Positions 3,843-15,823 of a stretch of DNA of 15,823 nt are shown here, piece after piece. The stretch lies in NCBI RefSeq assembly GCF_003334385.1, contig NZ_QOWN01000065.1; one strand, 5' to 3'. How positions within the stretch are numbered: the first letter of the stretch is position 1; every line of letters begins with the position of its first letter. Origin of the DNA: Escherichia coli. Its GTDB lineage: Bacteria; Pseudomonadota; Gammaproteobacteria; Enterobacterales; Enterobacteriaceae. The translations under genes and the position numbers were made by a program. The notes under the pieces are model-generated. The model saw only the letters and a list, made by a program, of their open reading frames with translations, was not told where the DNA came from and did not search any database.

Positions 3843-4787
3843 TCAGTTCTCTGTTCTGGCGCTTAACGAGCCAAATCCGGCAATCCACTCCGGGATTGGG
3901 CGGTAATAACGCCCTTCGCTACGCCAGTTGCCAAACGCAGAAATAGCGGCAAAAGCGGCGACCCAGGTTTTGATTTAATGTGTCGACTTTCCGGCAATGG
4001 CGGAAAGCTCTTCGTTACTGACGGCATCCAGTTCCTGTATGCGTCCCTGCTCCAGCAAAGTCATGAACTGGTTATCCCAAATCGGGTTGAGCGGATGCAG
4101 CGTTCTCTGATCCTCAACAAACTTCTCAGCGGCGCTAATCACCCGTTGCTGACGCAATTCGCGCTCACTGGCGGGTAAATCTTTCCCGCTCCCCAACAGA
4201 CGGTCGCGCATATGGGCATCGGCTTTCGCCAGTTCGGGCACCGGCGGCTGATGGGAAAGCCCACCGGAACCCAGGAACAGCACGCGTTTATTGAGAGTGC
4301 TGGTGAAACGTCCAATGGCTTCACCCAACATGCGGGTACGCTGGAAACCGGGCAGCGGCGTGGCGACACCGTTGATGAACACAGGCAGAACTGGCACCTT
4401 ATCCAGCCCACCGAGCAGGAACTCCAGCGGCTGGGCGAACCCGTGGTCCACCTGCATACAGTAAGAAACGGCAAGATCGATCCCGCTCTTCATGACGGCA
4501 TGCGCACAGGCCTCCGCCAGCTCCACAGGCACGGGCAGCTCTCCTGCCGCACTGCCGAAATCACCAATTGCCGTCGCTCCAACGCCTAAACAGAACGGTG
4601 GCATCACGTCATAGAAAAAGCCGTTGTAGTGATCTGGCGCAAACAGCACCACCAGTTCAGGGGAGAATGCCGCAATACGCTCGCGGGCGCTGGCAATCAC
4701 GCCATTGACCTCATCGAGCACCTCTTGCGCCGGGTCGACATACCCCACCAGCGGCGAGTGGGAAAGACAGTGAAGATAAGCGTGCAT
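3843..4787 (-). CDS. mhpB: 3-carboxyethylcatechol 2,3-dioxygenase (extradiol dioxygenase), reading frame interrupted by an in-frame TAA at 3975..3977. The uninterrupted ORF is 3975..4787 (270 aa); the same frame continues for 43 more codons ([43 protein letters not shown]) to the expected stop at 3843..3845
   Basis: The 270-aa ORF matches the MhpB N-terminal 270 residues as recalled (full length 314 aa). Directly after the TAA the frame encodes the recalled MhpB C-terminus. Consistent with a single-nucleotide nonsense change (plus-strand position 3977 A; expected C, giving GAA Glu). Confidence 0.85.
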
Positions 4788-4788
4788 A

Positions 4789-6453
4789 TCAGGCTACCTT
4801 TTCGACAGAAACGTCGGCATCAGGGCGGGTCAGCGTCATCACCGACGCCAGTTTATTCAGGGTCTTGCCCAGGGTTTGCGGAATGGCGGTGGCGGCAACA
4901 AAGCGATCCGGGCGCATCACCACCAGCGAAGCATTGTGTTGCGCGAACCAGCTACGCAGGCGACCTTGCGTATCGCCCACGCGTAGTACGCCGTCGTGGT
5001 TATCCTGTGCGGTATGAATTTGCACTTCCGGCACCACCTGAATGAAGCGTGTGCCCAACGCGCGCCACTGCTGGATTTGCTCGTCGCTCATCCCCCACAG
5101 TGGATTGCATCCCCAGCCAATTACCGCGAAGTTCGCGCCGATCGCGTTATCGAGCAGCGTCACGTCGCCGTTTTCCAGCGTGACTTTCGGCTGAATAAAC
5201 ATCTTGCCGACCGGAGAGTGCTTCGCTTCGCCCTCACGCATCAGCGCACCGCCGTAATATTGCGGCATCGGCTTGAAGCGCATTTCGAGGAAGTAGCGTT
5301 TTACTGGCGGCAGATAATTCAACAGCCAGGAAACGCCGTCACGTAACGTACCCTGCCAGCGTTTCGGCGGAGCCAGCACGTTGCCCGCCGTCACGGACAG
5401 GTCAATCATCGCTTTGGCGTGATCGCGACGTTCTTGTTGATAGGTATCGAGCAGCGCATCGCGGGCTTTCCCCTGGATAACCAACGCCAGTTTCCATGCG
5501 AGGTTAAAGGCGTCGCGCATACCACTGTTATAGCCCTGCCCCTGCCATACCGGCATGATGTGCGCGGCATCGCCCGCCAGCAGTACGCGATCAATACGGA
5601 AACGTTGCGCCAGTCGCGCGTTGTGGGTGTAGACACGCTGGCGAATCAATTCAACATTGTCCGGATTAGGCAGCACTTTGCTTAACAGCTTGCGCATATT
5701 TTGCGGCTCACGCAACTGCTCTTCGGTTTCTCCCGGCATCACCATAAATTCAAAGCGACGTACCGCATGAGGCAGCGCGGCAGAAACATACGGGCGCACC
5801 GGATCGCAACACAAATAGATATGCGGCGTACTTAACGGATCGTTGGCGATATCTACCACAATCCACTGATTTGGCGCAGTTTTACCTTCAAACGGCACAT
5901 TCAGAGTGCGACGGACAAAACTTGCTCCACCGTCACAGGCTACCAGCCACTGGGCTTTGACTATTTCCCGCTGCCCTTCTGCCGTTTTCAGGTGCAAGGT
6001 CACTTCGTCATCTTGCTGACTGAAGGCCTCCAGCTCGCGGGAAAACAAGCAGCGCACATTCGGAAAACGCGACACCCCTTCCAGCATCACCGCATCGACC
6101 TGCGGCTGAATAAAGGCGTTACGGCGCGGCCAGCCAAATTCATCGGTCATTGGCTGAATATCAGCAAAACAGCGGCCTTTCGGGGTGAGAAAACGCATCG
6201 CGTGCCACGGCGTAGTGTGCGGCAGAACATCATCGACCAGGCCGACCGACTGCATGGTGCGCAGCGCCTCGTCATCAATACCAATCGCACGCGGGTAGTC
6301 GATCAACTTATCGAGTTTCTCCACCACCAGCACGTCAATGCCCATCTGGCCGAGATAGTTCGCCATCATCAGCCCAACCGGGCCGGCACCAGCGATCGCC
6401 ACCTGAACGCTATGGTTAACAGCAGGCTGGATGTCAGGGTGTTGTATTGCCAT
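4789..6453 (-). CDS. mhpA: 3-(3-hydroxyphenyl)propionate hydroxylase, FAD-dependent monooxygenase (554 aa)
   Basis: 554-aa ORF with N-terminal FAD-binding GxGxxG motif ([16 protein letters not shown]); length matches MhpA; stop lies 1 nt from the mhpB start. Confidence 0.93.
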
Positions 6454-6594
6454 TTCAGTACCTCACGACTCGGACAAAATGTCGTTGCGCGCACAGTACA
6501 GCGCAACTTATTTTGTTAAAAACATGTAAATGATTTTTTATTGTGCGCTCAGTATAGGAAGGGTGTTTTCGGCTACAATCAAAACATGCCCGAA

Positions 6595-6611
6595 TGTGCA
6601 CCAGGTGCACC
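6595..6611. promoter_or_regulatory. 17-bp imperfect palindrome tgtgcaccaggtgcacc (reverse complement ggtgcacctggtgcaca) in the divergent mhpR–mhpA intergenic region; candidate MhpR operator of the mhp catabolic promoter
   Basis: Palindrome seen in the sequence; assignment to MhpR is from recollection of the published Pa operator and is not verified here. Confidence 0.5.
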
Positions 6612-6643
6612 ACGTTGTTTTAACTATAGAAATGTCAATTAAT

Positions 6644-7477
6644 ATGCAGAACAATGAGCAGACGGAATACAAAACCGTGCGCGGCTTAACCCGCGGTCTA
6701 ATGTTATTAAATATGTTAAATAAACTTGATGGCGGTGCCAGCGTCGGGCTGCTGGCGGAACTCAGCGGCCTGCATCGCACCACTGTGCGGCGACTGCTGG
6801 AGACGCTGCAGGAAGAGGGATATGTCCGCCGTAGCCCCTCCGATGATAGTTTTCGACTGACCATCAAAGTGCGGCAATTAAGCGAAGGATTTCGTGACGA
6901 ACAGTGGATTTCTGCACTGGCGGCCCCACTGCTGGGCGATCTGTTGCGCGAAGTGGTATGGCCGACAGATGTGTCCACGCTGGATGTTGATGCAATGGTG
7001 GTACGCGAAACCACTCACCGTTTCAGCCGCTTATCCTTTCACCGGGCAATGGTCGGGCGACGTTTGCCGCTTCTGAAAACCGCCTCGGGCCTGACCTGGC
7101 TGGCCTTTTGCCCGTAACAAGACCGCAAGGAATTAATCGAAATGTTAGCCTCCCGCCCCGGTGATGACTATCAACTGGCACGGGAACCGTTAAAGCTGGA
7201 AGCCATTCTGGCGCGCGCGCGCAAAGAGGGTTACGGACAGAACTACCGCGGCTGGGATCAGGAGGAGAAGATCGCCTCTATCGCCGTACCGCTGCGCAGT
7301 GAACAACGGGTGATTGGCTGTCTGAATCTGGTGTATATGGCGAGCGCAATGACCATTGAACAGGCAGCGGAAAAGCATCTTCCGGCGCTACAACGGGTAG
7401 CAAAACAGATCGAAGAAGGGGTTGAATCGCAGGCTATTCTGGTGGCCGGAAGGCGAAGCGGCATGCATTTACGTTGA
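6644..7477 (+). CDS. mhpR: IclR-family transcriptional activator of the mhp operon (expected 277 aa), interrupted by an in-frame TAA at 7115..7117. Present as an N-terminal ORF 6644..7117 (157 aa from MQNNEQ; wHTH domain) and a same-frame C-terminal ORF 7142..7477 (111 aa)
   Basis: Track ORFs 6530..7117 and 7142..7477 are in the same frame, separated only by TAA plus 8 sense codons (QDRKELIE). Read-through from ATG 6644 gives exactly 277 codons, the recalled MhpR length. IclR-type HTH (LSGLHRTTVRRLLETL) present in the N-terminal part. Confidence 0.85.
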
Positions 7478-7489
7478 CACCATCGAATG

Positions 7490-7518
7490 GCGCAAAACCT
7501 TTCGCGGTATGGCATGAT
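7490..7518 (+). promoter_or_regulatory. lacI constitutive promoter: -35 GCGCAA (7490..7495) and -10 CATGAT (7513..7518); wild-type, not lacIq
   Basis: Sequence gacaccatcgaatggcgcaaaacctttcgcggtatggcatgatagcgcccgg matches the canonical wild-type lacI promoter as recalled; the lacIq C-to-T at the -35 is absent. Confidence 0.85.
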
Positions 7519-7553
7519 AGCGCCCGGAAGAGAGTCAATTCAGGGTGGTGAAT

Positions 7554-8636
7554 GTGAAACCAGTAACGTTATACGATGTCGCAGAGTATGCCGGTGTCTC
7601 TTATCAGACCGTTTCCCGCGTGGTGAACCAGGCCAGCCACGTTTCTGCGAAAACGCGGGAAAAAGTGGAAGCGGCGATGGCGGAGCTGAATTACATTCCC
7701 AACCGCGTGGCACAACAACTGGCGGGCAAACAGTCGTTGCTGATTGGCGTTGCCACCTCCAGTCTGGCCCTGCACGCGCCGGCGCAAATTGTCGCGGCGA
7801 TTAAATCTCGCGCCGATCAACTGGGTGCCAGCGTGGTGGTGTCGATGGTAGAACGAAGCGGCGTCGAAGCCTGTAAAGCGGCGGTGCACAATCTTCTCGC
7901 GCAACGCGTCAGTGGGCTGATCATTAACTATCCGCTGGATGACCAGGATGCCATTGCTGTGGAAGCTGCCTGCACTAATGTTCCGGCGTTATTTCTTGAT
8001 GTCTCTGACCAGACACCCATCAACAGTATTATTTTCTCCCATGAAGACGGTACGCGACTGGGCGTGGAGCATCTGGTCGCATTGGGTCACCAGCAAATCG
8101 CGCTGTTAGCGGGCCCATTAAGTTCTGTCTCGGCGCGTCTGCGTCTGGCTGGCTGGCATAAATATCTCACTCGCAATCAAATTCAGCCGATAGCGGAACG
8201 GGAAGGCGACTGGAGTGCCATGTCCGGTTTTCAACAAACCATGCAAATGCTGAATGAGGGCATCGTTCCCACTGCGATGCTGGTTGCCAACGATCAGATG
8301 GCGCTGGGCGCAATGCGCGCCATTACCGAGTCCGGGCTGCGCGTTGGTGCGGATATCTCGGTAGTGGGATACGACGATACCGAAGACAGCTCATGTTATA
8401 TCCCGCCGTTAACCACCATCAAACAGGATTTTCGCCTGCTGGGGCAAACCAGCGTGGACCGCTTGCTGCAACTCTCTCAGGGCCAGGCGGTGAAGGGCAA
8501 TCAGCTGTTGCCCGTCTCACTGGTGAAAAGAAAAACCACCCTGGCGCCCAATACGCAAACCGCCTCTCCCCGCGCGTTGGCCGATTCATTAATGCAGCTG
8601 GCACGACAGGTTTCCCGACTGGAAAGCGGGCAGTGA
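7554..8636 (+). CDS. lacI: lactose operon repressor LacI (360 aa), GTG start
   Basis: Begins GTG AAA CCA GTA (MKPVTLYDVAEYAGVSYQTVSRVVNQ); the track ORF starts two codons further upstream on an alternative start. Protein matches LacI throughout as recalled, except codon 77 (GCG Ala here, TCG Ser recalled). Ends ...RLESGQ followed by TGA. Confidence 0.96.
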   Translation: MKPVTLYDVAEYAGVSYQTVSRVVNQASHVSAKTREKVEAAMAELNYIPNRVAQQLAGKQSLLIGVATSSLALHAPAQIVAAIKSRADQLGASVVVSMVERSGVEACKAAVHNLLAQRVSGLIINYPLDDQDAIAVEAACTNVPALFLDVSDQTPINSIIFSHEDGTRLGVEHLVALGHQQIALLAGPLSSVSARLRLAGWHKYLTRNQIQPIAEREGDWSAMSGFQQTMQMLNEGIVPTAMLVANDQMALGAMRAITESGLRVGADISVVGYDDTEDSSCYIPPLTTIKQDFRLLGQTSVDRLLQLSQGQAVKGNQLLPVSLVKRKTTLAPNTQTASPRALADSLMQLARQVSRLESGQ

Positions 8637-8649
8637 GCGCAACGCAATT
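8629..8649 (+). promoter_or_regulatory. lac auxiliary operator O3 (ggcagtgagcgcaacgcaatt), overlapping the lacI 3' end
   Basis: Exact match to the canonical O3 sequence as recalled. Confidence 0.9.
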
Positions 8650-8671
8650 AATGTGAGTTAGCTCACTCATT
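8650..8671 (+). promoter_or_regulatory. CRP (CAP) binding site of the lac promoter (aatgtgagttagctcactcatt)
   Basis: Canonical TGTGA-N6-TCACT lac CAP site, exact as recalled. Confidence 0.92.
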
Positions 8672-8684
8672 AGGCACCCCAGGC

Positions 8685-8714
8685 TTTACACTTTATGCTT
8701 CCGGCTCGTATGTT
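8685..8714 (+). promoter_or_regulatory. lac promoter P1: -35 TTTACA (8685..8690) and -10 TATGTT (8709..8714); wild-type, not lacUV5
   Basis: Hexamers and spacing match wild-type lacP; the -10 is TATGTT rather than the UV5 TATAAT. Confidence 0.92.
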
Positions 8715-8720
8715 GTGTAA

Positions 8721-11833
<3,113 letters not shown>

Positions 11834-11839
11834 TAATAA

Positions 11840-13138
<1,299 letters not shown>

Positions 13139-13917: not shown

Positions 13918-15072
13918 TCATGCCTCTTTGACCCACAGCTGCGGAAAACGTACTGGTGCAAAACGCAGGGTTATGATCATCAGCCCAACGACGCACAGCG
14001 CATGAAATGCCCAGTCCATCAGGTAATTGCCGCTGATACTACGCAGCACGCCAGAAAACCACGGGGCAAGCCCGGCGATGATAAAACCGATTCCCTGCAT
14101 AAACGCCACCAGCTTGCCAGCAATAGCCGGTTGCACAGAGTGATCGAGCGCCAGCAGCAAACAGAGCGGAAACGCGCCGCCCAGACCTAACCCACACACC
14201 ATCGCCCACAATACCGGCAATTGCATCGGCAGCCAGATAAAGCCGCAGAACCCCACCAGTTGTAACACCAGCGCCAGCATTAACAGTTTGCGCCGATCCT
14301 GATGGCGAGCCATAGCAGGCATCAGCAAAGCTCCTGCGGCTTGCCCAAGCGTCATCAATGCCAGTAAGGAACCGCTGTACTGCGCGCTGGCACCAATCTC
14401 AATATAGAAAGCGGGTAACCAGGCAATCAGGCTGGCGTAACCGCCGTTAATCAGACCGAAGTAAACACCCAGCGTCCACGCGCGGGGAGTGAATACCACG
14501 CGAACCGGAGTGGTTGTTGTCTTGTGGGAAGAGGCGACCTCGCGGGCGCTTTGCCACCACCAGGCAAAGAGCGCAACAACGGCAGGCAGCGCCCACCAGG
14601 CGAGTGTTTGATACCAGGTTTCGCTATGTTGAACTAACCAGGGCGTTATGGCGGCACCAAGCCCACCGCCGCCCATCAGAGCCGCGGACCACAGCCCCAT
14701 CACCAGTGGCGTGCGCTGCTGAAACCGCCGTTTAATCACCGAAGGCATCACCGCCTGAATGATGCCGATCCCCACCCCACCAAGCAGTGCGCTGCTAAGC
14801 AGCAGCGCACTTTGCGGGTAAAGCTCACGCATCAATGCACCGACGGCAATCAGCAACAGACTGATGGCGACACTGCGACGTTCGCTGACATGCTGATGAA
14901 GCCAGCTTCCGGCCAGCGCCAGCCCGCCCATGGTAACCACCGGCAGAGCGGTCAACAGGGCAGCCACGCTAAAGCTCATTCCGCTCGCCTGGCGCAATTG
15001 CGGTAGCAGTGGCCCGACGGAGGTGAGCAGTGGTCGCATATTAAGACCAATCAGCACCAGTACCAGCAGCAT
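13918..15072 (-). CDS. cynX: cyanate transporter CynX (MFS family, 384 aa)
   Basis: The track ORF 13918..15099 is 393 aa; the recalled CynX is 384 aa starting MLLVLVLIGLNMRPLL, so the start is placed at Met10 (15072). Highly hydrophobic, multi-TM. Confidence 0.88.
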   Translation of the reverse strand: MLLVLVLIGLNMRPLLTSVGPLLPQLRQASGMSFSVAALLTALPVVTMGGLALAGSWLHQHVSERRSVAISLLLIAVGALMRELYPQSALLLSSALLGGVGIGIIQAVMPSVIKRRFQQRTPLVMGLWSAALMGGGGLGAAITPWLVQHSETWYQTLAWWALPAVVALFAWWWQSAREVASSHKTTTTPVRVVFTPRAWTLGVYFGLINGGYASLIAWLPAFYIEIGASAQYSGSLLALMTLGQAAGALLMPAMARHQDRRKLLMLALVLQLVGFCGFIWLPMQLPVLWAMVCGLGLGGAFPLCLLLALDHSVQPAIAGKLVAFMQGIGFIIAGLAPWFSGVLRSISGNYLMDWAFHALCVVGLMIITLRFAPVRFPQLWVKEA

Positions 15073-15104
15073 CGTGAACGTCTTTTGATGGTTGCGCATG
15101 GCTG

Positions 15105-15593
<489 letters not shown>

Positions 15594-15605
15594 TTAAAAA
15601 TAAGG

Positions 15606-15823
15606 TTACGCTGCGGTCGGTTGGCGTAGCGGTATGGCACAAACGCGAGGATTAGCGGCCAGTGGCACAAACTGGCGGGTTGCGCCGTCAAAAGCTGCGA
15701 TGCTGCCGCTTTCAATGTCGTAGACCCAGCCGTGCAGGGCGATCCGCCCATAAGCGCTAACTTAAGGGTTGTGGTATTACGCCTGATATGATTTAACGTG
15801 CCGATGAATTACTCTCACGATAA
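15606..15823 (-). CDS. cynT: carbonic anhydrase CynT, 3' portion only (gene runs off the window). The last 48 codons (15609..15752) encode [47 protein letters not shown]; upstream of about 15753 the frame is not open
   Basis: Hand translation of the minus strand gives the CynT C-terminus as recalled, with a TAA stop at 15606..15608. An in-frame TAA lies at 15762..15764 and all three minus-strand frames contain stops in 15753..15823. Confidence 0.7.

Follow-up and report, generated by a model that had tools for sequence, protein, structure and literature searches.

The window, by which we mean the whole stretch of 15,823 nucleotides of Escherichia coli DNA that was analysed, ends in a copy of the beta-class carbonic anhydrase gene cynT whose reading frame is closed, and we attribute the closure, with a probability of about 0.95, to an insertion of IS186 into cynT at the window edge. 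In the mechanism that we propose, IS186 (1339 bp, IS4 family, with the DDE transposase InsL) would have transposed into the 3' third of cynT, its transposase having picked the near-consensus site aGGG-CGATCCG-CCCC and duplicated 11-13 bp. The window, ending 75 nt into the element, would show the junction between the 3' part of cynT and the left end of the IS alone. In SCU-104, a commensal of phylogroup A and ST8125 that came from a healthy student, the element would later have recombined with a second, inverted IS186 at the iap-CRISPR locus, inverting about 2.98 Mb and placing the 5' half of cynT, cynR and codA beside iap. The features concerned are the following:

13918..15099, minus strand: cynX (cyanate transporter), an intact ORF and the distal gene of the cynTSX operon (from the ORF list; same coordinates in the SCU-104 annotation)
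15105..15575, minus strand: cynS (cyanase), an ORF of 156 aa, intact and located downstream of the interrupted cynT (from the ORF list and the SCU-104 annotation)
15606..15749, minus strand: cynT 3' remnant, codons 173-219 plus TAA, with neither start codon nor promoter; its translation matches the C-terminus of intact CynT
15737..15749, no strand assigned: target-site duplication, left copy, inside the native site aGGG(CGATCCG)CCCC; with CA...TG as the IS ends it is GGCGATCCGCC (15738-15748, 11 bp), and with the ambiguous terminal C/G given to the target it is GGGCGATCCGCCC (13 bp)
15749..15823, plus strand: first 75 nt of IS186 (IS4 family; PGAP name IS421 family), recognized by identity to curated K-12 IS186B and cut by the window edge
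15749..15771, plus strand: left terminal inverted repeat of IS186, CATAAGCGCTAACTTAAGGGTTG, 23 bp, identical over its full length to the ends of K-12 IS186A/B/C and of both SCU-104 copies
15804..15823, plus strand: beginning of insL, the transposase gene of IS186, with its ATG and five further codons (MNYSHD); its transcription runs away from cynS and cynX

Direct translation of the minus strand at 15606..15749 gives CynT residues 173-219 and the TAA (15606-15608) that ends the gene. The 47 C-terminal residues (G173-A219) are identical, 47/47, to those of the intact 219-aa CynT of strain E2865, and the gene order (cynS, cynX, lacA, lacY, lacZ) is that of other E. coli. The last codon to match is GGG (G173) at 15749; the codon at 15750-15752 encodes Y against E172 in native CynT, and the gene is physically interrupted past codon 172/173. 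The first-pass annotation had extended the CynT C-terminus from 15606 to 15752: the match to 47 residues stands, and it stops one codon earlier. Its central claim, that the cynT frame is not open over the final ~70 nt, is borne out by direct translation, in which the frame, reading ...YHNP*VSAY ahead of the CynT match, meets an in-frame TAA at 15762-15764 and a second stop farther up. The remaining two minus-strand frames also contain stops within 15753..15823, so that all three are closed. A full-length 219-aa CynT ORF is thus not found upstream of cynS, where only residues 173-219 are encoded before the frame is closed by IS186. The closure of three frames is in itself unremarkable, because 71 nt of random sequence with the composition of the window would have stops in all three frames with a probability of ~0.20; what chance does not explain is the abrupt loss of identity.

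That loss falls on a single position. Identity to native cynT ends exactly at 15749, with no cynT sequence beyond, and the tail, 15749..15823, is 100% identical to the first 75 nt of K-12 IS186B (75/75). Past the site, native cynT reads ...GATCCGCCCC TCTTCGAG, whereas the window reads ...GATCCGCC CATAAGCGCTAAC. The entry into IS186, with its in-frame minus-strand TAA, is what closes the cynT frame. Comparison with reference cynT, which had been put forward as the check on the translation, finds the stretch not identical and leaves native cynT at 15749. Two of the explanations offered at first pass, a junction with non-cynT sequence and a cynT disrupted in this strain, both prove right and describe the same event, the junction partner being the left end of IS186. 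The reference used for the element is the curated K-12 MG1655 record, in which the copies are entered as 'insertion sequence:IS186A/B/C' and the product as 'IS186/IS421 transposase'.

The window was placed among 5,426 complete E. coli genomes. Positions 15751-15823 have 8,457 perfect or near-perfect places (E = 1e-29) in 2,188 of the 5,426 genomes, with a median of 3 per genome, and all these places are annotated 'IS4-like element IS421 family transposase'. The junction itself behaves differently: a query of 15600-15823 finds some match in 4,419 of the 5,426 genomes, and records with an intact cynT among the matches listed are 100% identical over the first 150 nt, up to 15749 only. All 224 nt are matched by one genome of the 5,426, SCU-104 (NZ_CP053284.1). 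With a chimeric query, made of the last 150 nt of IS186 and the native cynT downstream of the site, the reciprocal junction is likewise found in exactly one genome, SCU-104, at 4.024 Mb. No second independent insertion at the cynT site was found in either orientation among the 5,426 genomes, SCU-104 alone extending past the 150-nt cynT part. The allele is rare, at 1/5,426 complete genomes. RefSeq already holds it for SCU-104, with the pieces of cynT annotated as partial pseudogenes flanking the IS (the 3' stretch is labelled by PGAP 'carbonic anhydrase CynT, incomplete, missing N-terminus'); a search of the literature returned one irrelevant paper and no discussion of an IS186 insertion in cynT.

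The window aligns to SCU-104 end to end in one piece, with 8 differences in 15.8 kb. Seven of the eight are private to the window when it is compared with SCU-104 and with VG48B2, the IS-free genome closest to the window, and one is private to SCU-104. These differences show that the window is not the SCU-104 record; it stems from a close relative or else from an isolate sequenced or derived differently. The copy in SCU-104 is a full IS186 of 1339 bp with zero differences from K-12 IS186A/B/C over 1339/1339 bp, and the K-12 copies (n=3) and SCU-104 copies (n=2) are all identical over this length. Of the terminal inverted repeats with their 5'-CA...TG-3' ends, the left is exact in the window and the right lies outside it; in the SCU-104 element both 23-bp repeats are present and perfectly complementary. 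The full SCU-104 transposase, six codons of which lie inside the window, reaches 133.3 bits with the NCBIfam model NF033592 (IS4 family transposase), whose cut-off is 115, a family-level match to an IS4-family DDE transposase.

The choice of target site also agrees with what is known of the element. IS186 targets 5'-GGGG(N6/N7)CCCC-3', and among 59 new insertions 7 were at sites off by 1-2 bases (Lee et al., 2016; PMC5009759). The native cynT site, aGGG(CGATCCG)CCCC, is of the N7 type and departs from this consensus by one base, a deviation within the published tolerance. In SCU-104, the same 11-13 nt that precede the IS are repeated at its other end beside the 5' half of cynT: the junction on the cynT 3' side reads ...GTGCAG GGCGATCCGCC / IS, as in the window, and that on the cynT 5' side reads IS / GGCGATCCGCC CCTCTTCGAG... 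The window carries the left copy of this direct duplication only. All three K-12 copies occupy GGGG-N6-CCCC sites, with 10-bp duplications and an identical ...CC/IS/GG... geometry. Target choice, duplication and element identity are all concordant, which argues for a bona fide IS186 insertion. Two points count on the other side: it is in SCU-104 alone, a genome 8 positions away from the window, that the whole IS, its second junction and the target duplication are demonstrated, and the G-run of the target lacks one base of the canonical GGGG.

The two halves of cynT lie 2.98 Mb apart in SCU-104. At the locus corresponding to the window the order is lacZ-lacY-lacA-cynX-cynS-cynT'(3')-IS186-hok-cysH-cysI, the IS186 being followed by GGTTTTACCCCC and hok-cysH; at the other locus it is cysN-cysD-iap-(CRISPR repeats)-IS186-'cynT(5')-cynR-codA-codB-prpE. 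In K-12, cysN-cysD-iap-CRISPR-cas-sokX-cysH-cysI are contiguous at 2.87-2.89 Mb, and the mhp-lac-cyn region is near 0.36 Mb in K-12-derived records. The two SCU-104 IS copies are identical and in opposite orientation, and all four IS/flank junctions are kept, as is the case in IS-mediated inversions that arise by homologous recombination between inverted IS copies (PMC5009759). The order of flanks in SCU-104 is exactly that which a single inversion of ~2.98 Mb, by recombination between inverted IS186 copies, would be expected to produce. On K-12 coordinates, with oriC at about 3.93 Mb, the breakpoints would be approximately equidistant from the origin on opposite replichores, and the inversion would keep the replichores balanced. 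In SCU-104, translation of the orphan 5' fragment would run through CynT residues 1-176 and then three IS-encoded residues, HKR, to a stop. At the other end, the SCU-104 counterpart of the window's left edge runs on into mhpT with no IS.

Several further observations concern the second breakpoint. The second SCU-104 copy of IS186 lies directly after the third type I-E CRISPR repeat beside iap (...GGGGAACAC-CCC/IS; L004 3650-3834, L001 5489-5700), and between the iap flank and the hok/cysH flank neither the remaining array nor any of the cas3-cas2 operon (~9.5 kb in K-12) is present. As the flanks of this copy are without a target duplication and the array and cas genes are missing, an additional IS186-associated deletion is implied. 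IS186 repeatedly adjoins hok/sok loci: in K-12 it lies next to hokC (IS186A) and hokE (IS186B; L006, L007), and SCU-104 has an intact hok beside cysH (L001 5510-5662), where K-12 has sokX only. With 22 chromosomal IS186 copies, SCU-104 reaches the maximum for any of the 5,426 genomes (median 3), which suggests an expansion of IS186 in its lineage.

Whether the genome of the window shares the inversion bears on how the insertion is arranged there. The same IS186 insertion may still be simple, with the 5' half of cynT and cynR right after the element, and the window would then represent the state ancestral to the 2.98-Mb inversion. The matching duplication on both halves of cynT shows that a simple insertion must have come first, and the window is not SCU-104, seven of the eight differences being its own. 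The sole genome known to have the junction, however, carries the inversion, and we hold the simple arrangement to be possible and the less probable of the two.

An assembly artefact would also place the end of IS186 at the end of a contig, if the contig end were misjoined to, or collapsed into, a repeated IS186 end while cynT was really intact. The window does stop 75 nt into a multi-copy repeat, as is typical of short-read contig breaks, and the exact 37-nt junction has 0 matches in JGI metagenome contigs. The same junction is, however, present base for base in the finished circular genome of SCU-104, which also has the reciprocal junction and an 11-13-bp duplication at a site that fits the motif; a random misjoin would not yield that, and we consider an artefact very improbable. 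Slighter still is the chance that cynT decayed in place by indels or substitutions, or that the sequence was locally damaged near the edge, since the short CynT-like peptides in other frames (LAL, RE), which the first-pass annotation saw as resembling CynT and as suggesting indels or several substitutions instead of one point change, are chance translations of the IS186 terminal inverted repeat, while the tail is unrelated to the native cynT expected there, no degraded cynT follows 15749 and the change of identity at one base position in the alignments already refutes decay.

With an IS186 insertion as the cause, cynT in the window reads as a pseudogene fragment, and the last 75 nt are to be annotated as IS186 and not as damaged cynT. 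cynT, cynS and cynX form one cyanate-inducible operon, in which CynT regenerates the bicarbonate used by cyanase (PMC7321114). Judged from the sequence, CynT would be truncated, and the truncated protein is probably inactive. cynS and cynX, both intact, would be severed from the cyanate-inducible cynT promoter, and the predicted outcome for the strain is a failure to induce cyanase and the loss of cyanate detoxification and use. Over 15400-15823, a consensus scan for sigma-70 promoters and terminators turned up neither an outward promoter nor a terminator close to the junction, a negative that weighs little in either direction. The cyanate-inducible carbonic anhydrase, and probably cyanase expression, are predicted to be lost, and the finding as a whole matters little beyond annotation.

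The seven changes private to the window all cluster in 3977-8821. Two are nonsense mutations, mhpB E271* (C>A at 3977) and mhpR E158* (G>T at 7115), at codons that are intact in SCU-104 and VG48B2; if they are real, the mhp (3-hydroxyphenylpropionate) pathway and its activator would be knocked out too in the strain of the window. In VG48B2, mhpT is annotated as frameshifted (L005 1-1105), and loss-of-function changes may have arisen more than once in the mhp cluster of this group. Two changes, G>A at 8719 and at 8732 relative to SCU-104 and VG48B2, fall in the lac promoter/operator O1 (lacZ starts at 8759). That at 8732 alters the O1 core from GAGCGGATAAC to GAGCGAATAAC and is common to strain 203740 (one record checked of 25 single-mismatch matches), and that at 8719 adjoins the transcription start and is private to the window; the two occur together in 0 of the 5,426 genomes. 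The lineage of the window reads GTGTGAAATTG at the lac promoter/operator, where K-12 presumably reads GTGTGGAATTG. The remaining private changes are lacI S77A (T>G at 7782) and two synonymous ones, at 5715 (mhpA L247) and 8821 (lacZ G21). The change private to SCU-104, at the equivalent of window position 12798, is lacY G305D.

A broader and rather doubtful reading is that the window comes from a phylogroup A lineage near SCU-104 (ST8125) that is in an IS186 burst with ongoing gene loss. It is prompted by the 22 IS186 copies, the megabase inversion and the IS186-associated loss of type I-E cas genes in SCU-104, and by the private mhpB and mhpR nonsense mutations and the private lac promoter/operator change in the strain of the window. 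If true, the burst would show early IS-driven reductive evolution taking place naturally in a human commensal. The many IS186 copies and the rearrangements of the nearest relative make, in any case, a modest case study in IS-driven genome plasticity.

The event is of a kind already known, the disruption of a gene at a G-run/C-run site being ordinary IS186 behaviour. Compared with IS-mediated inversions described before, SCU-104 likewise has two identical, inverted IS186 copies with one 'foreign' flank each, an arrangement seen in the relative and not in the window; it differs in that its second copy is without a matching duplication and lies at a CRISPR repeat with the cas operon missing. The same element is responsible for the hot spot at the lon promoter (E. 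coli B/BL21 and K-12 mutants; PMC3045373) and for those at menC and fimA in mutation-accumulation lines (PMC5009759). The logic of the GGGG(N6/N7)CCCC target is the same at these hot spots as in cynT, and the gene or operon that is hit is inactivated alike, whereas the cynT site is an N7 site with three G's and is not recurrent in natural genomes. The closest likeness is to IS186A/B/C of K-12 (PGAP 'IS4-like element IS421 family'), to which the 75 nt in the window and the 1339 bp of the SCU-104 copy are identical. The 23-bp inverted repeats, InsL, the G-run/C-run target and the 10-13-bp duplication are all shared; the element is without difference, and only its location in cynT is unusual.
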